Shown here: positions 20,345 to 31,109 of the stretch, one piece after another
Layout: each line of letters begins with the position of its first letter
Numbering within the stretch: the stretch's first letter is position 1
Assembly: GCA_016840465.1 (NCBI GenBank)
Contig: JAEOSH010000019.1
Coordinates: 1 to 31,109 of the forward strand
Direction: 5' to 3'
Source of the DNA: Candidatus Baldrarchaeum yapensis
Lineage (GTDB): Archaea; Asgardarchaeota; Baldrarchaeia; Baldrarchaeales; Baldrarchaeaceae
DNA: 31,109 nt
Program-made: the position numbers and the translations under genes
The notes under the pieces: model-generated
The model's database searches: none
What the model was told of the DNA's origin: nothing
What the model saw: the letters and a program-made list of their open reading frames with translations, nothing else

Positions 20345-21916
20345 TTAGAAAATGTTTTCCTTCTCGACCCACTCTGGGAACCACATGTAGTGCTCAAGCG
20401 GGTACGCTTTCTTCAGCCCTGCGTATGTTGGCCTTACCATGGCAATTCTTCCTTTTCTATCCCTGAATAGCTTTACAAGACCCTTTTCTTCGAGAGATAG
20501 CAGTATCTGATCGAGTCTATCGTCACTGACCTCTATATAATCCTTTATGTCGTCTTTTGTCATGTAAAGACCCGGATTCACGACGTAGTTGTCTGCCAGT
20601 ATTTTCAGAATGTCCTCCTCGGTAACCTCGTCTTTCTTTATTTTTTGAGGTGGAATGTTCGTCGGAATCGGGACCTTGATCTCGGGGTCGAAGTAGCGGT
20701 AGACTTTCTTAAATACGTCCCTCATGATCCTGGGTCCCTGCCTGAAGAGTATCAGGCGCATGATCTCGTTTGTTCCGGCAACTATTGGCATTACACGTGC
20801 GGCTCTCCATATCGACTCCACGGGGTAGAACTTCGTCCAGCCGTCCCCTCCCATGCACCGTATTGCATCGTCCGCTATTTTCAGTAGTGACTCGCTGGCA
20901 AAGAGTTTAGCAGCAGTTGCGTCGAGAAGAGGTTGATATCCTTGATCCATCATGTACGCAGTGTAATAAATGAGCAATCTGCTGAGCCTATACCTCCAAA
21001 TCATGTCCGCGATCTTGAACTGGTTGTTGACAAGATCTGATGTCCTCGCGTTAAACTGCACCCTTCTTGTAGTGTGATAAAACGCATTCCTAATAGCTTC
21101 TTTCATCGGCCCCAGACATCCCGCCGCCACAACCGTCCTCTCAAGGTTGAATCCACTCATCATAATGAGCCAGCCATCTCCCTCTCTTCCCAGCCTATTC
21201 TCAACGGGAACCCTGACCTCATCGAGGTCTAAGTATCCGTTATAGACTCCTTCCCATCCGCATAACTCGTTTATTCTCTCCACCTTGAAGCCGGGTCTTC
21301 CCTTCTCCACAATAAACGCGGAAAGGTGGCGATACCTTGCTCTGTCCTCGGGTTTATCGCTTGTGCGTGCATAAACTATATACATGTCGGCAACTCCGGC
21401 ATTCGTGATATATCTCTTCTTCCCGGTTATTACATATTCATCTCCGTCCCTGATGGCTACAGTCTCTACGCTTGCGGCATCTGATCCAACATAAGGCTCG
21501 GTAACGCACACTCCTGTGAGAATTTCTCCTTTTGCTATCTTAGGAAGCCATTTCTCCTTTTGCTCCTTTGTCCCAAAATGAACAATCTGATGCGTACCTC
21601 CGAACATCGTGTCACTAAATGCGGTCCCAACAGCCCCTAGTCTCGACAGCTCTTCAGCAAGAATGCAACATCCGGTCACTCCGTAGTCTTTGCCAAGCCC
21701 TTCGTACTCCTCAGGAATCAGAACGCCGAACCATCCTCTCTTTGCAACTTCCTTTATCAGTTCCCATGGAAACTTACGCTTCCACATGTAAATGTATGAC
21801 TTATGCAGGTTTTCATCCGCGAACACCTCAACCTCGTCGGCAAGCTTGCGTTGCTTTTCGTTCCACCATGGGAACTTCTCCAAGATGATCCCCTCACGAG
21901 TTTTAGCCTGCGGCAA
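20345..21916 (-). CDS. Acyl-CoA dehydrogenase with a ~125-aa C-terminal winged-helix-like extension
   Basis: VTEPYVGSDA, GKKRYITNA, helix-G FNLERT (IVD/LCAD-type Glu), MGGDGW and GTNEIMR; C-terminal LEEKGLVKL-type wHTH segment. Confidence 0.9.
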   Translation of the reverse strand: MPQAKTREGIILEKFPWWNEKQRKLADEVEVFADENLHKSYIYMWKRKFPWELIKEVAKRGWFGVLIPEEYEGLGKDYGVTGCCILAEELSRLGAVGTAFSDTMFGGTHQIVHFGTKEQKEKWLPKIAKGEILTGVCVTEPYVGSDAASVETVAIRDGDEYVITGKKRYITNAGVADMYIVYARTSDKPEDRARYRHLSAFIVEKGRPGFKVERINELCGWEGVYNGYLDLDEVRVPVENRLGREGDGWLIMMSGFNLERTVVAAGCLGPMKEAIRNAFYHTTRRVQFNARTSDLVNNQFKIADMIWRYRLSRLLIYYTAYMMDQGYQPLLDATAAKLFASESLLKIADDAIRCMGGDGWTKFYPVESIWRAARVMPIVAGTNEIMRLILFRQGPRIMRDVFKKVYRYFDPEIKVPIPTNIPPQKIKKDEVTEEDILKILADNYVVNPGLYMTKDDIKDYIEVSDDRLDQILLSLEEKGLVKLFRDRKGRIAMVRPTYAGLKKAYPLEHYMWFPEWVEKENIF

Positions 21917-23105: not shown

Positions 23106-23775
23106 TGTTACGACTTCCGAAAAAAATAATTTATGTGCTTTACGGGAATAAGTTCTCCAATGCTCTCCCTCTATCTAAGTCTACTTGCGATTGTTCATTT
23201 ATTTCATGGAATGAGAGTGATCTTGATGAATTTCTTTAATGGAACGAATCAAACGCCTTTTTCCATTCGCATAATGACACTCTGCATGAGTATTATGATT
23301 CCGTCGGCATATGTTTTAGCGATGCTATTTTGTGTACTCGGTCTCATAGCGGCATTAGGGATCAGCGTAATGATAGCGGTGTCATATGGACTTTTTCTGG
23401 CTTAAAGAGCAGTTTGGAGTGGAGGTATCTTCCTGGTATTTTCATCTCGGCGGCTGTTTCAACATTTATTGTGATTTTGCTGAAAAGTTGTTTTAATCCG
23501 AAGTCCTTGTTTGGCAATGTTCTTTACCTTTTCACGAGTGGTATTATATAATTTTTTATACAATATTATACGACGTTATTGCCAATATTTGGCGGCATTA
23601 ACGCCAAAGATCTGAGAAATATTGGGAGATTTTTCGAAGAAATGCGAATAATCGGGAAATTTGTAAAGTTTGCACTGAGAGTTGAAGAAAAGGTGCTACG
23701 GATGACGAGGAAGTTCCGATCCTAGTAACAACTGTTATGAATTTTCCGTGATGACTTTTATAATGGGTGATAGTA

Positions 23776-24879
23776 ATGGCATCTCCGGTAAGAAAACTAG
23801 CAGACTTAATTGCGGGATATAGTGTGGAGGTTAGGAAGAGTGATGATGTTGTAATAAGAGCTACCATGGCAGCAATGCCGCTCTTAGTGGAACTTTACAG
23901 AGCGATCGTTGAGAGAGGTGGGTACCCAATACCTATGCTTACCGATGAGTTGCTCATAGAGACGTTTTACAGATATGCGGATGATGAAGTTCTGAAGCAC
24001 GTCTCACCGATTGAAAAGTTCATTCAGGAGAAAGCAAATGTCATGATAAGGATACTCTCCGATACCCACACGAAGTTCATGAGTTCGATAGACCCCGAGA
24101 AGGTGAAGATTGCCAACGCGGCGAGAATAGAGCTTACGAAAATATTTCTCGAGAGGAGTGCGAAGAAGGAGTTGAGATGGACCGTTGCACCGTATCCCAC
24201 GAAGGCGCTCGCCCAGGAGGCAGGTATGAGCTTCTTCGAGTATGAAGAGTTCGTTTATAGAGCGTGTGCTGTTCATCTCGATGATCCGATTTCCTTCTGG
24301 AAGAAGAAGGGAGAAGAGCAGAAAAAGATAATAGAACTATTGAGTAAGGTCTCGGAGCTGCGCTTTGTTGCCGAGGATACGGATCTAACTGTTAGGGTGG
24401 ATGGTAGAGTCTGGGTCAACGATGATGGTCATGAGAACATGCCGGGCGGGGAAGTCTTTACAGCACCGATAGAGGATAGCGTCGAGGGGCGGATAAGGTT
24501 CACATACCCGGCGATTTGGAGAGGTGTGGAGGTTGAGGATGTCATGTTAGTTTTCAGAAAAGGGGAGGTTGTCGAGGCGAGGGCCAGACGCGGGGAGGAG
24601 TTCTTAAGAAGGATCTTAGAAACCGACGAGGGCGCAAAGAGGGTTGGAGAGTTGGCGTTCGGTCTAAACTACTACATAGATAAATTTACGAAGAACATAC
24701 TGTTCGATGAAAAGATCGGTGGAACTATACACATGGCACTGGGTGCCGCTTATCCGGAGACAGGAGGCAAAAATGTTTCCGCCATTCACTGGGATATGAT
24801 AAAAGACATGAAGAGGGGAAAGGTTTACGCGGATGGAGATTTGATATACGAGAATGGAAAGTTTGTTGTGGAGTTGTAG
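23776..24879 (+). CDS. M29 family aminopeptidase (AmpS/PepS-like thermophilic metalloprotease)
   Basis: ENMPGGEVFTAP, GELAFG, LFDEKIGGTIHMALG and SAIHWDM. Confidence 0.93.
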   Translation: MASPVRKLADLIAGYSVEVRKSDDVVIRATMAAMPLLVELYRAIVERGGYPIPMLTDELLIETFYRYADDEVLKHVSPIEKFIQEKANVMIRILSDTHTKFMSSIDPEKVKIANAARIELTKIFLERSAKKELRWTVAPYPTKALAQEAGMSFFEYEEFVYRACAVHLDDPISFWKKKGEEQKKIIELLSKVSELRFVAEDTDLTVRVDGRVWVNDDGHENMPGGEVFTAPIEDSVEGRIRFTYPAIWRGVEVEDVMLVFRKGEVVEARARRGEEFLRRILETDEGAKRVGELAFGLNYYIDKFTKNILFDEKIGGTIHMALGAAYPETGGKNVSAIHWDMIKDMKRGKVYADGDLIYENGKFVVEL

Positions 24880-24880
24880 C

Positions 24881-26254
24881 TCATAGATTTCCGATTTCTC
24901 TCCTCACGCTCTCTATGTACCTTTTTATATCGTCCTCTGTTGGGTGATAGTTCAGCAGTTTACCAGATAGGTATTCGTCATACGCTGTTAGATCCAGTAG
25001 CCCATGTCCTGAGAAGTTGAATGCTATTACTTTCTTTTCTCCAGTTTTCTTGCATTCTAGAGCCATGTCTATTGCGGCTTTTACAGCATGGGCGGTTTCA
25101 GGAGCCGGTACATAACCTTCGCACGCCGCAAATATTCTTGCTGCCTCAAACACCTCCGTCTGGTTATAGGCTACGGCTCTTACGACCCCCTCATTTACTA
25201 ATGCACTGAGCGTAGGTGCTACACCGTGATAACGAAGCCCGCCAGCGTGGATGGGCGGTGGGCGGTACACATGCCCTAAAGTGAACATTTTGAGTAACGG
25301 TGTGAGTTTACCGGTATCCCCGTAATCATACATGTAAACTCCTCTTGTCATGGTAGGTACAGCTTTAGGCTCTACGGCTATAACATCAATGTCATCCTTA
25401 CCTGAGAGAATATCAGCTATGAACGGATACGTGAAGCCAGCGAAGTTCGATCCACCGCCAACGCATCCTATCAGTACGTCTGGGTACTCTCCTATAGCCT
25501 CGAACTGCGCTTTCGCCTCCAGCCCTATTACCGTTTGATGTAAAAGTACGAAGTTCAGCACGCTTCCTAAGGAGTATTTCACGTTTTCATGAGTTAGACA
25601 ATCTTCGAGCGCCTCACTTATTGCTATTCCAAGACTACCGGGGTGATTTGGATCCTCTGCTAGGTACTTTCTTCCAACCTCAGTTCTATCGCTTGGAGAT
25701 GGAAACACCTCAGCGCCATATAGTTCCATGAGCACCTTACGGTAGGGTTTCTGTAGATAGGAGGACCTTGTCATGTATACGGTTATCTTTATGCCAAAGA
25801 GTGCACCAGCAAGCGATAGTGCACTACCCCACTGCCCGGCGCCCGTTTCTGTTGTAAGTCTCTCGACTCCCTCCTCACGAGCGTAGTACGCTTGGGCGAC
25901 GGCGGTGTTAACTTTATGACTTCCGGTCGGGGAAAGATCCTCCCTTTTGTAGTATATCTTTGCTGGGGTTCCGAGGAACTTCTCTAATCTGCGTGCTCTT
26001 TGGAGGGGTGTTGGCCTTCCTAACCTCATATACACCTCTCTGATCTCCTCAGGTATCGGAACGAACCTCTGTGTGGAAACCTCCTGTCGCACACACTCTT
26101 TAGGAAAGATCCTTTCGAGTCTACTGGGATCTACGGGAGCCTTTTCTCTCGGATCAAGTGGAGGTGGTAGTGGCTTTCCCAAATCGGCGAGGATGTTGTA
26201 CCAGTGTCTCGGAACCTGTTCTACATCGAGCAGAACTTTGACTTCAGATCTCAT
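24881..26254 (-). CDS. trpB2: Tryptophan synthase beta chain type 2 (TrpB2)
   Basis: 457 aa; [11 protein letters not shown]-terminus, [14 protein letters not shown] (PLP Lys), [18 protein letters not shown] and SGHG. Confidence 0.93.
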
Positions 26255-26612
26255 CTTTTTCCCCCTCCGAGTCCAAGGCTTCGGCTATGAGCTCCCCCAC
26301 GGACGATAACCTCAGGGGAACTCCTCTCTCGTACTCGACAAGACCGCACTCCCTCAGACTTTTCAGTATCCTTTTCACTGTGCTTAGCGGTATCCCCGTG
26401 GACTCAGAAAGCCTCGCCGAGAACTTACTATAACTTGTATTGTCTTGCTCTCTTAGAAGCATGCGCAGAACAAATTTCTGTTTTTGTGTCAACCTCCTCT
26501 TGCAGATGCTCACAAGAACACGAATAATTTCGGAGTATGCTGGTCTTCTCTTAACCGTAGGGGACACGCCCACGGGGGTATATCTCAAGAAGTTAGACCC
26601 AAATAGAGTCAC
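26244..26612 (-). CDS. Winged-helix DNA-binding protein overlapping trpB2
   Basis: LTQKQKFVL...[30 protein letters not shown]-wing pattern. Start uncertain. Confidence 0.75.
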
Positions 26613-27302: not shown

Positions 27303-28457
27303 GTGACCCGGAGGGTCGCGATCGTCGGGGTAGGGTATAGCGACTTTAGACCGGCAACTCCCGATGTTGCCTTCCATGAGATGATGTTCGAGGCCGCGGT
27401 CAAGGCGTACGAGGATGCGGGTGTCAACCCCCGCAAGGATATCGATAGTTTCATTGCATGCTCCGAGGACTACTGGGAGGGCTTCAGCATCTTTGACGAA
27501 TTCGTTCCTGACCAGTTGGGTGCCGTATTGAAGCCTGTATGCACAATTTCGGCGGATGGGATGTATGGAGTGATAAATGCGTACCTTCAGATAAGAACAG
27601 GCGCCTTCGACATTGTTGCAGTTGAAGCGCATAGCAAGGCTAGCGATATTGTCAATATGTGGCATGTGATGGCGTTTGCCTTCGACCCCATCATAAACAG
27701 GCCACTGAAGATGCATCCCTACGTCATTGCTGGCCTGGAGATGATGAAGTTCCTTAAGGACTCCGGCAACACCGAAGAACACTGCGCGATGGTCGTTGCT
27801 AAGAACAAGAAGAACGCAATGAAGACCCCTTATGCATCTTATGGTTCAATAATAAGTCCAGAGGACGTTCTGACATCTGAGACTCTATTCCACCCACTTA
27901 AGAAGTTGGACGCAAGCGAGTTTGTGGACGGAGCAGTAGTTATTGTTCTAGCGGCAGAAGAGGTTGCTCGTAAACTCACCGATACCCCGATATGGATAAA
28001 AGGAGTTGGCTGGTGCACGGATACTCCATGGCTTGAGTTCAGGGACTGGTCCAGAGCTGTTTATGCAGAAATGGCCGCAGAAATGGCATATAAGATGGCG
28101 AGGATTCATGAGCCTGCAAAGCAAATAGATTTCGCCGAAATTGACGATAAGTTCTCGTATAAGGAATTACAACACATGGAAGCGCTAAGACTATGCAGAA
28201 AAGGAGAGGCGGGTCTTTTAGTCGAGGAAGGAGTTACCGAGAGGGATGGGGACCTGCCAGTTAACCCCTCCGGTGGGTTCTTGGGGGTTGGCAATCCGCT
28301 CGAGGCGGGTGGACTTGTCAAGATACTCGAGGCGGTACTACAACTGAGAGGAGAAGCGGGTAAGAGACAGGTTCCAAAAGCGGAGGTTGCGGTGACGCAG
28401 ATATGGAGAGGAGTTCCCACAACTTCAGGTGCTGTTGTTGTTTTAGGTAGGGAATGA
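27303..28457 (+). CDS. Thiolase-fold protein (SCP2/Ltp-like) lacking canonical catalytic residues
   Basis: RVAIVGVG N-terminus and NPSGG. ISADG replaces the CxSG nucleophile site, DDKF replaces HDCF, and GNP replaces GHP. Confidence 0.88.
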   Translation: MTRRVAIVGVGYSDFRPATPDVAFHEMMFEAAVKAYEDAGVNPRKDIDSFIACSEDYWEGFSIFDEFVPDQLGAVLKPVCTISADGMYGVINAYLQIRTGAFDIVAVEAHSKASDIVNMWHVMAFAFDPIINRPLKMHPYVIAGLEMMKFLKDSGNTEEHCAMVVAKNKKNAMKTPYASYGSIISPEDVLTSETLFHPLKKLDASEFVDGAVVIVLAAEEVARKLTDTPIWIKGVGWCTDTPWLEFRDWSRAVYAEMAAEMAYKMARIHEPAKQIDFAEIDDKFSYKELQHMEALRLCRKGEAGLLVEEGVTERDGDLPVNPSGGFLGVGNPLEAGGLVKILEAVLQLRGEAGKRQVPKAEVAVTQIWRGVPTTSGAVVVLGRE

Positions 28458-29639
28458 TTGGGGGTGTGTGATGTGATTATTAAGAGGAAAGTTGCGGTAG
28501 TTGGTGCCGGTTTGACGCTCTTCAGGAGGAGAATGCAGGAAACATCGAGGGAACTCGCATGGGAAGCGACCAAGATGGCCCTAGAGACCGCTGGTATCGA
28601 ACTTAAGGACGTAGAATGTGTAGTGATGGGATCTGCTCCCGATGCGTTTGATGGTATTCATATGAAGGGCGAGAACTTGGCGGATGGATGCGGTGGCTGG
28701 AGGAAACCCTACACTAGGGTGTTCGTTGGCGGTGGAACTGGGGTTTTCGTTCCAATAGCCGCGTGGTGGCATGTTGCCTCCGGGCATTTTGATATATGCC
28801 TAGCCGTTGCTGAGGAGAAGATGAGCCCTTGTCATCCACATCCTCAGTGGGCGTTCCACACGATATTCGACCCGATACTTTCTAGGCCCCTCGGGGTCAA
28901 TCTGATATGGATATTCGCGCTCGAGATGCACCGCTACATGTACAAGTATGGCATAAAGAAAGAGGATATTGCTCTAGTTTCGGTGAAGAACAAGGCGAAC
29001 GCACTTGATCACCCGTGTGCACAGCTTGCTGCGAAAATTACTGTTGAGGACGTGTTGAATTCCGAAGTGCTAGTATGGCCCGTTCAGAGATTGGATATCA
29101 GCCCGATAACAGACGGTGCAGCGGCAATTGTGTTGGCGTCTGAGGATGTTGCCAAAAAGCTTACTGATTCACCTGTATGGATAGAGGGTGTCGGATGGTG
29201 CCTTGATTCAAGATACTGGACGAACAGAGATCTTGCCTATCCAAAGTACGTCGAGTATGCAGCGAGAATGGCATATAAGATGGCGGGAATCCATAACCCG
29301 CCCAAGGAGATAGACGTTGCGGAAGTGTATGACCCGTTCGACTACAAGGAATTGCATCACATGGAGGGTCTCCTATTAGCTAGAAAGGGCGAAGCGCCGA
29401 AGCTTACGAAGGAAGGAGTCACTCAGAGAGACGGAGACCTTCCGATAAACCCATCCGGAGGACTACTAGGCGTAGGAAACCCGATCGCTGCAGCGGGGTT
29501 AATGAAAGTTTGCGAGATATTCTGGCAGTTGAGGGGAGAGGCGGGCAAAAGGCAAGTTCCTGGAGACCCGAGGACCGGACTTGCTCAAGCTTGGGGAGAC
29601 CTGATGCAGATAGGTACTGTTATTGTGATGAGGGCGTGA
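28458..29639 (+). CDS. Second thiolase-fold protein lacking the nucleophilic Cys
   Basis: RKVAVVGAG, VGGGTG at the CxSG site, YDPF, NPSGG and GNP. The start may be GTG 28473. Confidence 0.88.
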   Translation: MGVCDVIIKRKVAVVGAGLTLFRRRMQETSRELAWEATKMALETAGIELKDVECVVMGSAPDAFDGIHMKGENLADGCGGWRKPYTRVFVGGGTGVFVPIAAWWHVASGHFDICLAVAEEKMSPCHPHPQWAFHTIFDPILSRPLGVNLIWIFALEMHRYMYKYGIKKEDIALVSVKNKANALDHPCAQLAAKITVEDVLNSEVLVWPVQRLDISPITDGAAAIVLASEDVAKKLTDSPVWIEGVGWCLDSRYWTNRDLAYPKYVEYAARMAYKMAGIHNPPKEIDVAEVYDPFDYKELHHMEGLLLARKGEAPKLTKEGVTQRDGDLPINPSGGLLGVGNPIAAAGLMKVCEIFWQLRGEAGKRQVPGDPRTGLAQAWGDLMQIGTVIVMRA

Positions 29640-29643
29640 GGAG

Positions 29644-30186
29644 GTGGTTAAGGTGAGTGAGAAGATAAAGGAGTATCCGGGGCATCCCCTATCTGAGCAG
29701 GATATCTCTACTGGCAAGGTTTTAACAACAAAATGGCGCCCTAAGGCCAGATATATGTATGCTGCTGGAGTTGCGATAAGCAAGTTTCTCGAAGAATTGA
29801 AAAACGGGAGAATTGTGGGAAGAAAGTGCAGAAAGTGCGGAAGGATCCTCGTGCCACCTCGAATGTACTGCGAGTGGTGCTTTAGACCGACGGACGAATG
29901 GGTTTACGTCAAGGACACGGGCAGGGTCGTTACTGCGGTCATAAGTTACATAGCCGCCGATAGGGCAAGGCTCGAAAAGCCGGAGATAATTGCAGTTATA
30001 GAGTTGGACGGCGCGTCACCCGGTATGGGCATTCTCCACAAACTCGGTGAGGTGGATCCCGAGGACGTAAAGAATATGAAGGTCTTCGGGATGAGGGTAA
30101 AAGCTGTATGGAAGCCACCTGAAGAGAGGGAGGGGTCGATTACCGACATTCTATACTTCAGACCATTAAAGGAGGGTGAGGAGTAA
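29644..30186 (+). CDS. DUF35 Zn-ribbon/OB-fold protein
   Basis: GRKCRKCG...PPRMYCEWC and GMRVKAVW. Confidence 0.92.
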   Translation: MVKVSEKIKEYPGHPLSEQDISTGKVLTTKWRPKARYMYAAGVAISKFLEELKNGRIVGRKCRKCGRILVPPRMYCEWCFRPTDEWVYVKDTGRVVTAVISYIAADRARLEKPEIIAVIELDGASPGMGILHKLGEVDPEDVKNMKVFGMRVKAVWKPPEEREGSITDILYFRPLKEGEE

Positions 30187-30659
30187 TGTCGCTTGAGAAG
30201 ATTAGGGATCCCGAAAGAATGAGACGCTGGCCGGGTCATATGGAAACTGATTATGTTTACACAGTTGGCCTAGCGGGCGAGAGATTCTTCAGGGAAATAA
30301 AGGATAACGGCAAGTTTTATGGCACGCGTTGCGAAAAATGCGGAATAACTTACTTCCCGGCGAGGACCTTCTGCGAGAGGTGCCTCTCGGAGTTAAAGGA
30401 GTGGGTTGAGGTATCCCCGCGGGGATACGTTGAGATGTATACTATCGCATATATGGATCTCGAGGGCAATAAGTTAGAAAAGCCGGAGATCTGGGCGTTC
30501 ATAAGGTTTGAAGGAGTATTCGGTGGCTTGGTTCACAAGCTTGGCGAAGTGAAGCCTGAGGAAGTCAAGATAGGAATGGTGGTCGAACCAGTTCTAAAGC
30601 CTAAAGAGCAACGCGAAGGATCAATCACTGACATTCTCTATTTCAAACCAGCGAAGTGA
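30186..30659 (+). CDS. DUF35 Zn-ribbon/OB-fold protein
   Basis: GTRCEKCG...PARTFCERC and IGMVVEPV. Confidence 0.92.
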   Translation: MSLEKIRDPERMRRWPGHMETDYVYTVGLAGERFFREIKDNGKFYGTRCEKCGITYFPARTFCERCLSELKEWVEVSPRGYVEMYTIAYMDLEGNKLEKPEIWAFIRFEGVFGGLVHKLGEVKPEEVKIGMVVEPVLKPKEQREGSITDILYFKPAK

Positions 30660-30729
30660 TCTCAGGTATTATCTTTTCATTTTTAATCATTATTTAAGAC
30701 GAGAAAAGTATTTCGGAGTGGTGAGGCAT

Positions 30730-31109
30730 ATGCTTTTGAGTCCCTTTGGCCCCGAGTTGGAGAAGTTTAGGGAAGAAGTAATATCATTTCTCGAGAGGGA
30801 GTTGGTTCCGCTAGTTGACAAAATAGAGAGGGAGAATTACTTTGCTAGGGAGTTCATAGAGGCCTGCGGGCGGGAGGGATATCTAGGATCCCTTTTTCCT
30901 AAAGAATATGGAGGGACGGAAAGAGGCGCGATGGCAGAGGTGATAATCGCGGAGGAAACCGCAGCGGTATGCCCTGCCATAGAGATGGCGAGAGCCTCCA
31001 GTTGCGTACTCTTCGCGTTCCCCGTTTTTAAGTTTGGTACCGAGGAACAGAGGAGAGAATATCTTGCTCCGGTGATTAAGGGAGAGAAGTTAGGAGCATT
31101 GGGAATAAC
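30730..31109 (+). CDS. Acyl-CoA dehydrogenase, 5' part (runs off the window)
   Basis: MLLSPFGPELEKFREEV...FPKEYGG...AEE...FGTEEQRREYL...GEKLGALGI; GGTGAGG RBS. Not in the ORF track because there is no stop in the window. Confidence 0.9.
   Translation, partial: MLLSPFGPELEKFREEVISFLERELVPLVDKIERENYFAREFIEACGREGYLGSLFPKEYGGTERGAMAEVIIAEETAAVCPAIEMARASSCVLFAFPVFKFGTEEQRREYLAPVIKGEKLGALGI

Follow-up and report, generated by a model that had tools for sequence, protein, structure and literature searches.

What reaction is to be expected of two adjacent proteins that have the fold of a thiolase and lack its nucleophilic cysteine? The question is raised by the last part of a 31,109-nucleotide stretch of DNA from Candidatus Baldrarchaeum yapensis (contig JAEOSH010000019.1), referred to here as the window, which is the whole of contig C9 of a 2.27-Mb, 96%-complete metagenome-assembled genome (MAG; genome G000). 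From position 27303 to the contig end the window carries five co-directional open reading frames (ORFs) on the forward strand. These encode two Cys-less thiolase-fold proteins, designated subunits A and B, two DUF35 proteins, designated DUF35-1 and DUF35-2, and a partial acyl-CoA dehydrogenase (ACAD). We give a probability of roughly 0.45 to the reading that the first four genes specify a heteromeric, Cys-independent C-C lyase, which would split a 3-hydroxyacyl-CoA in a retro-aldol reaction or carry out the corresponding condensation. An earlier note on the same DNA had proposed an acyl-CoA aldolase in place of a thiolase. The rejection of thiolase activity stands, while the aldolase part is argued from analogy only, as a second catalytic residue is missing in B.

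Active sites of the two thiolase-fold subunits

Subunit A (27303..28457, 384 aa) matches PF22691 in Pfam at an E-value of 5e-36 and scores 540 bits against NF004722, the PRK06066 equivalog of NCBIfam, for which the cut-off is 516. Subunit B (28458..29639, 393 aa as listed) scores 720 bits against NF004721, the PRK06065 equivalog (cut-off 455), and its Pfam matches are PF22691 and PF00108. Both equivalogs are named only "thiolase domain-containing protein". The defining motifs of archaeal acetyl-CoA acetyltransferases are CxS, HDxF and GHx (PMC12960953). Both proteins retain the thiolase fold, and for B the AlphaFold2 model has a mean predicted local distance difference test (pLDDT) score of 93.6 and a template-modelling (TM) score of 0.93 to the archaeal thiolase 6esq, yet all three motifs are lost in both A and B.

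When A is aligned to thiolases, including a canonical PRK06064 neighbour, it is seen to carry CTISADG, with Ser83 at the nucleophile position beside a three-residue deletion, IDDKF in place of the archaeal HDCF (Asp281 for His and Lys283 for Cys), and GVGNP in place of GHP, wherein Asn331 replaces the His. Asp281 also occupies the place of the Tyr in the Y-D-H-F motif of Ltp2-type proteins, so that this Tyr is absent from A. In B, an HMMER alignment places Gly92 of VGGGTG opposite the nucleophilic Cys of PDB entries 7yvy and 6esq; VYDPF takes the place of HDCF, with Tyr291 for His and Pro293 for Cys, and GVGNP that of GHP, with Asn341 for His. All motifs are present as quoted in the earlier note (ISADG and VGGGTG for the lost nucleophile, GNP for the lost GHP His), and alignment confirms its equation of YDPF in B with the HDCF of SCP2-thiolases. 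Judged by these replacements, neither A nor B can be a canonical thiolase, and annotation as acetyl-CoA acetyltransferase would be misleading, as had been anticipated.

The substitutions in B cannot be put down to chance, because G92, Y291-D292-P293-F294 and N341 are invariant in all 86 B orthologues. They are part of invariant stretches that read VGGGTGVF, E-x-YDPFDYKE and SGGLLGxGNP, and 71 polar or aromatic residues of B are conserved at 98% or more. Subunit A behaves otherwise: among its 68 orthologues the equivalent positions drift (D/H/N/C, L/M/R/T/K and, at the GHP-His site, Y/N/W/H), and only 21 polar or aromatic residues are conserved at the same level. The invariance of B, set against the drift of A at the motif positions, indicates that B behaves as a catalytic subunit and A as a degenerate partner. 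B, its pocket rebuilt, is therefore the probable catalytic subunit, and A is probably non-catalytic; of the two thiolase folds in the proposed aldolase, only B looks catalytic. At the 22 loci that have all five genes (the four described here and a canonical thiolase), mean pairwise identity is highest for B (85.9%), followed by the canonical thiolase (79.9%), A (72.8%), DUF35-1 (70.4%) and DUF35-2 (65.9%).

The four-gene module and its DUF35 proteins

The two thiolase-fold genes are followed by those for DUF35-1 (29644..30186, 180 aa) and DUF35-2 (30186..30659, 157 aa), each of which consists of a zinc ribbon and an OB-fold (PF12172 and PF01796). The genes are tightly packed: the stop codon of A abuts the ORF of B, a gap of 4 nt separates B from DUF35-1, and the ATG of DUF35-2 overlaps the stop codon of DUF35-1 by 1 nt. 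Gene A has a GTG start with the Shine-Dalgarno sequence GAGGTG 4 nt upstream. The true start of B is probably the GTG at 28473, which has GGGGTG as a Shine-Dalgarno sequence 6 nt upstream and would yield a protein of 388 aa, matching the length of the orthologues.

The distribution of this arrangement was examined in one genome per prokaryote species, where 472 relatives of B were found; the best 80 loci, with 74-86% identity to B, were inspected, and gene-order counts were taken from crude ORF calls and represent lower bounds. The 80 loci come from many archaeal phyla, with carriers among the Bathyarchaeia, Hod-, Prometh- and Baldrarchaeota, Nitrososphaeria, Geothermarchaeota, Marsarchaeota, Thermoplasmatota and Methanofastidiosia. 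The closest named locus belongs to a Baldrarchaeota MAG (L067, 85% identity), and a PRK06065 member was also recovered, as a search control, from Sulfolobus acidocaldarius. In at least 62 of 73 loci the gene immediately upstream of B is of the A type. On the downstream side of B, one or more DUF35 genes occur in at least 65 of 69 loci, and at least 53 of 69 have two. The intergenic gaps have medians of 3 to 9 nt. All told, about 80 loci carry the four genes as a conserved module. Occurrence is patchy, with the module found in 8 of 41 genomes (G000, which is counted, and 40 relatives).

Both DUF35 proteins retain an intact CxxC...CxxC ribbon. In DUF35-1 the cysteines C62, C65, C76 and C79 are invariant among 23 orthologues, and the ribbon of DUF35-2 reads CEKC...CERC. 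A natural fusion of a B-like protein with two DUF35 domains (P0128, 731 aa, L099:2585-4780) occurs on one bacterial contig, directly behind an A-like gene, and provides Rosetta-stone evidence that B, DUF35 and A-like parts act together. With the first DUF35 domain of this fusion, DUF35-1 shares 49% identity and DUF35-2 shares 44% (99 bits); DUF35-2 is also 32% identical to the second domain (73 bits), to which its N-terminal segment aligns as well. On the contig of the fusion a penicillin-binding protein adjoins, and the second DUF35 domain is without zinc-ribbon cysteines.

From the conserved four-gene order and the fusion, the natural reading is that A, B, DUF35-1 and DUF35-2 would form a hetero-oligomer, in keeping with what the earlier note had suggested. 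A complex prediction of A, B and DUF35-1, made with alignments, has no bearing on binding either way, as a control in which B was replaced also scored high.

Known relatives and the proposed chemistry

The known proteins closest to B are the archaeal acetoacetyl-CoA thiolase of the thiolase/3-hydroxy-3-methylglutaryl-CoA (HMG-CoA) synthase/DUF35 complex (6ESQ/6ET9) and a Pyrococcus thiolase (7YVY), with scores of 152-172 bits (172 bits for 7yvy) and TM scores of 0.92-0.93. These thiolases also work with DUF35 proteins, but in them Cys, HDCF and GHP are all in place, and the reactions that they catalyse are Claisen condensation and thiolysis. For a chemistry that can proceed without the cysteine, two retro-aldolases are the relevant models. 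TcLtp2-ChsH2, in which ChsH2 is the DUF35 protein, cleaves the C3 side chain of steroids (6OK1), and like B it has a Cys-less thiolase fold with a Tyr as first residue of the HDCF-equivalent motif. Here Tyr294 of Y-D-H-F acts as base and Tyr344 as acid (PMC12329534). The DUF35 partner of TcLtp2 is obligatory, and two DUF35 genes adjoin B. The second model, CtSal-CtShy(DUF35), cleaves the bile-acid C5 side chain (9MYR) and shares with B a Gly at the nucleophile position and a Tyr in Y-D-x-x. It relies on Tyr302 and Cys304 of Y-D-C-Y, with Gln352 at the position of Tyr344, and variants C304A, C304S and C304H are inactive (PMC12329534).

Tyr291 of B aligns with the His of HDxF and hence with Tyr294 of TcLtp2; the Tyr of the YDHF motif in Ltp2 and that of YDCY in Sal have been shown by mutagenesis to be the catalytic base (PMC12329534). 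The use of this Tyr by Ltp2, on which the earlier note had relied, is thereby documented, and the Tyr is invariant in B. Beyond this residue the likeness is incomplete. The homodimeric TcLtp2 carries YDHF, and a second Tyr, Tyr344, takes part in its catalysis, whereas B has YDPF and, 50 residues after its Tyr, Asn341, the equivalence of which to Tyr344 is by spacing only. Gln352 of CtSal and Asn341 of B are both amide residues that lie 50 residues downstream. CtSal, however, needs its Cys304, where B has the invariant Pro293, and it is a homodimer of which the DUF35 protein is part of a hydratase.

Heteromeric assemblies of thiolase folds are known from the Friedel-Crafts acyltransferases PhlABC and MucABC, which resemble the module in having one degenerate subunit and a DUF35 protein that holds the assembly. 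PhlC/MucB nonetheless keeps the Cys of CxS and the His of GHx, and the partner in these enzymes is like HMG-CoA synthase (HMGS) and is no SCP2-thiolase paralogue (PMC12960953). The same parts list as in the module is encountered in actinobacterial trios, for which plasmid-borne homologues of Tsukamurella tyrosinosolvens and Streptomyces clavuligerus (L100, L101) were compared. These encode a double-DUF35 protein, an A-like PRK07937 "lipid-transfer protein" and a B-like PRK08313 protein. The PRK08313 proteins have Gly at the Cys position, YVPF and NP, and their A-like partner is degenerate. The trios are accompanied by an enoyl-CoA hydratase (ECH) and an AMP-ligase, mirroring echA19/fadD19, and their arrangement is that of Rv3521-ltp4-ltp3, the gene order of which was confirmed. 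The archaeal module thus shares the architecture of Rv3521/Ltp4/Ltp3-type trios, with the difference that in the trios (DUF35x2, A-like, B-like) the DUF35 domains are fused and upstream, while in the module they are separate and downstream. The module contains no orthologue of the Ltp3/Ltp4 trio, because A scores 140 against PRK07937 (cut-off 419) and B scores 273 against PRK08313 (cut-off 514), both far below the cut-offs. Ltp3 and Ltp4 are genetically required for the degradation of C24-branched sterol side chains and have been proposed to be aldol-lyases, the evidence being genetic in Wilbrink 2012, as cited; to list them as established retro-aldolases, as had been done, goes further than this genetic implication.

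An exhaustive search of 50%-identity representatives uncovered a large radiation in which two Cys-less classes stand beside the canonical thiolases: a B-like class with the pattern G...Y...N and an A-like class with x-D-G and variable motifs. In a FastTree phylogeny of 109 sequences, which is unrooted and poorly resolved in its deep branches, the canonical thiolases form one starred clade and the A-like proteins another, while the B-like proteins fall into two starred groups. A clusters with Ltp4-type proteins in the A-like clade; B falls among the B-like proteins, in a clade distinct from that of PRK08313. PDB entry 4YZO (Sulfolobus tokodaii ST0096, "thiolase-like"), on which we know of no publication, was considered as a solved member of the family; at 31% identity to B, it still has the histidines of HD.. 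and GHP, and was set aside as a different non-standard type.

The mechanism that is proposed here envisages an A-B heterodimer of thiolase folds flanked by the two DUF35 proteins and built as in the known thiolase/DUF35 complexes, in which A would serve as the degenerate structural partner. The pocket of B would be cysteine-free, with Gly92 in place of the nucleophile and Asn341 in place of the oxyanion-hole His. Tyr291 would act as the base, at the position where Ltp2 and Sal hold theirs, and Asn341 together with backbone amides could stabilise the thioester enolate. A 3-hydroxyacyl-CoA would thereby be converted to acetyl- or propionyl-CoA and an aldehyde or ketone, or the reverse. What goes beyond gene order, motifs, invariance and the fusion, namely the stoichiometry of the complex, the role of Tyr291, the aldol chemistry and any substrate, is what we infer.

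Other cassettes with B-like genes are in line with such a lyase. An enoyl-CoA hydratase gene adjoins in four of the five contexts with readable neighbours (L090/L091, L104, L105 and the contig of P0126, with none at L102), and a 3-hydroxyacyl-CoA dehydrogenase is present in none of these cassettes, which fits a hydratase-then-lyase logic. G000 itself has a full β-oxidation set, with four 3-hydroxyacyl-CoA dehydrogenases, eight ECH matches and three MaoC matches, and in addition six further thiolase-fold genes and nine DUF35 domains. The full set implies that the module provides an extra function and no replacement, so that the proposed lyase would act as an accessory to the rich β-oxidation complement of this genome.

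Several observations weigh against the lyase. True archaeal thiolases resemble B more closely, in sequence and in modelled fold, than the aldolases do, for B scores 86 bits against Ltp2 (6OK1; TM 0.83) and 77 bits against Sal (9MYR; TM 0.86). This relationship indicates that the catalytic set was lost and then rebuilt independently of Ltp2 and Sal. Pro293 sits at the place of Cys304 in Sal and of the His in Ltp2, and Asn341 at that of the second Tyr of Ltp2, so that no complete aldolase pair can be recognised. The aldolase chemistry of B is accordingly offered by analogy and does not amount to a match with Ltp2 or Sal. Full-text literature searches returned no characterisation of Cys-less archaeal thiolase/DUF35 proteins or of PRK06065/PRK06066 proteins. 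Neighbouring genes differ by lineage (mutase operon, ACADs, hydrolase of the haloacid dehalogenase (HAD) superfamily, canonical thiolase) and do not point to a substrate, and an enoyl-CoA hydratase gene lies within 8 kb of the module in none of the 80 loci of this orthogroup. No evidence was found for the isoprenoid or phytanyl chains that had been named as examples of substrates.

The alternative that survives best, which we nonetheless hold to be rather unlikely, is a different enolate reaction on an acyl-CoA, one in which no C-C bond to a carbonyl partner is formed or cleaved, such as (methyl)malonyl-type decarboxylation, 2-methylacyl-CoA epimerisation, isomerisation or hydration. Here Asn341 would stabilise the thioester enolate and Tyr291 would be the proton donor or acceptor. 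This would suit a subunit B without a recognisable second aldolase residue, and the related Cys-less TbSLP weakly decarboxylates malonyl-CoA (PMC12329534). In 25 of 80 loci, moreover, nearly all of them labelled Bathyarchaeia or Bathyarchaeota, the module has a methylmalonyl-CoA mutase operon directly downstream. Yet only related Bathyarchaeia show this linkage, which may be synteny passed on by descent, and G000 and other Asgard carriers have kept the module without having the carboxyltransferase. A "pathway hole" that the module would fill as methylmalonyl-CoA decarboxylase or epimerase was considered and dropped, as module-bearing mutase genomes already have the carboxyltransferase in 26 of 34 cases and a canonical methylmalonyl-CoA epimerase over the cut-off in 22 of 35.

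The mutase operon (for example L054:7647-11255, L047 and L020) is of the split type and comprises a large subunit, the B12-binding subunit, a MeaB GTPase and a corrinoid adenosyltransferase, and a pyridoxal phosphate (PLP)-dependent enzyme of Cys/Met metabolism often lies between it and the module. In the mutase-linked genomes, carboxyltransferase and epimerase are encoded elsewhere.

Less probable again is a non-catalytic scaffold or acyl-CoA-binding adaptor that organises or regulates other enzymes, such as a divergent canonical thiolase/DUF35 pair, much as DUF35 and degenerate HMGS-like subunits hold together PhlABC/MucABC and the archaeal fatty acid synthase (FAS)-like complex. Every thiolase catalytic residue is lost in A and B, a canonical PRK06064 thiolase with a DUF35 gene is situated divergently upstream in about 35 loci, and earlier examples exist both of thiolase-fold subunits that are inactive within DUF35 complexes (PMC12960953) and of assemblies mediated by DUF35 (bioRxiv 10.1101/2024.07.05.601840). 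In a scaffold, however, the former active site would be expected to drift, as it does in A, whereas the corresponding motifs and the many conserved residues of B are held fixed, B changes more slowly than its genuine thiolase neighbour, and the window has no canonical thiolase next to the module. Thiolase activity after all, through an alternative nucleophile in A, is very improbable: Ser83, at the nucleophile position, is kept by 49 of 68 orthologues and is T, G, A, C or P in the others, the nearby Cys80 ("PVC"), which the earlier note had named as an example of a Cys that could overturn its proposal, gives way to Phe in 48 of 68, neither A nor B has an invariant Cys (the best kept occurs in 58 of 68 for A and in 70 of 86 for B), which makes thiolysis via another Cys very unlikely, and the HDxF and GHx histidines as well as the acid/base Cys are missing from both subunits.

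Two narrower ideas about substrates were abandoned. Nothing in G000 supports an analogue of HMG-CoA lyase that would feed acetoacetate to an acetoacetyl-CoA synthetase; neither an HMG-CoA lyase over the cut-off nor an acetoacetyl-CoA synthetase nor a carboxyltransferase for leucine catabolism was found in this genome. Aldehyde products or lipid substrates might be argued from a Hodarchaeota MAG (L016:12268-16767), where two SCP2 sterol-carrier-type genes and an aldehyde:ferredoxin oxidoreductase follow the module; it is the only such locus, and the argument is too thin.

Flanking genes and the meaning of the family

Downstream of DUF35-2 there is an AT-rich spacer of 70 nt (30660..30729) in which an oligo-T run and a TATA-like TTATTTAAG element can be read, possibly a terminator and a promoter between the module and the ACAD gene. 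The ACAD ORF (30718..31109), which probably starts at the ATG at 30730, matches PF02771 at an E-value of 4e-28; the contig ends within the gene, so that only the N-terminal domain, with the first ~130 residues, is covered. An ACAD that accompanies the module in a Hodarchaeota MAG shares 41% identity with it. Within 8 kb of the module, ACADs from at least three clusters occur in 14 of 80 loci, and one of the present type is upstream and divergent in the Asgard relatives L009, L016 and L067, in contrast to its downstream position in the window. The ACAD is a recurrent neighbour and no core member of the module, and with the spacer in front of it may be a separate transcription unit, so that its inclusion in the operon, as first described, is not upheld. 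A second, complete ACAD of 523 aa, with ~130 extra C-terminal residues, is encoded on the reverse strand at 20345-21916, 5.4 kb upstream of the module.

Directly upstream of the module, on the opposite strand (23767-26612), the window encodes a PLP-dependent enzyme of the PALP family (457 aa) and an overlapping winged-helix regulator of 122 aa, which are preceded by an M29 aminopeptidase; the adjacency of these three genes to the module is not conserved in the other loci. A HAD-superfamily hydrolase stands beside the module in 29 of 80 loci and belongs to two unrelated clusters (L082:8020-8760, L083 and L078; cluster-4 genes in Bathyarchaeia). In Geothermarchaeota it is found immediately upstream of the module on the same strand.

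The family represents an uncharacterised variation on the theme of Cys-less thiolase-fold/DUF35 lyases, and the window adds to it an Asgard example with an adjacent ACAD. Hundreds of archaeal MAGs contain genes of the A and B types under the label of acetyl-CoA acetyltransferase or "thiolase domain-containing protein", and these likely enter as thiolases into reconstructions of butyrate, fatty-acid and mevalonate routes in Bathyarchaeia and Asgard archaea. Ketothiolase/DUF35 pairs have been counted at 3.8 per Asgard genome and at seven in S. acidocaldarius (bioRxiv 10.1101/2024.07.05.601840); such counts probably include Cys-less modules, which are no ketothiolases.

A broader reading, put forward more tentatively still than the lyase itself, is that PRK06066/PRK06065/DUF35x2 could stand as archaeal prototype for a large and so far unrecognised class of C-C lyases, heteromeric, built on the thiolase fold and independent of cysteine, in Asgard archaea, Bathyarchaeia and many other archaea. 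A catalytic B-like subunit, with a Tyr/Asn centre unlike that of Ltp2 or Sal, would be combined with an A-like pseudo-enzyme for hydroxyacyl-CoAs beyond normal β-oxidation. If this is true, many "thiolase/DUF35 pairs" in reconstructions of archaeal lipid metabolism are not thiolases. The conservation of B, which stands at 75-85% identity between archaeal phyla and exceeds that of a true thiolase, points to an important reaction. Were B indeed a Tyr/Asn-based lyase, it would represent a third way in which the thiolase fold achieves retro-aldol catalysis, and the first that lies outside steroid catabolism, and it would offer a biochemical handle on the Ltp3/Ltp4 step.

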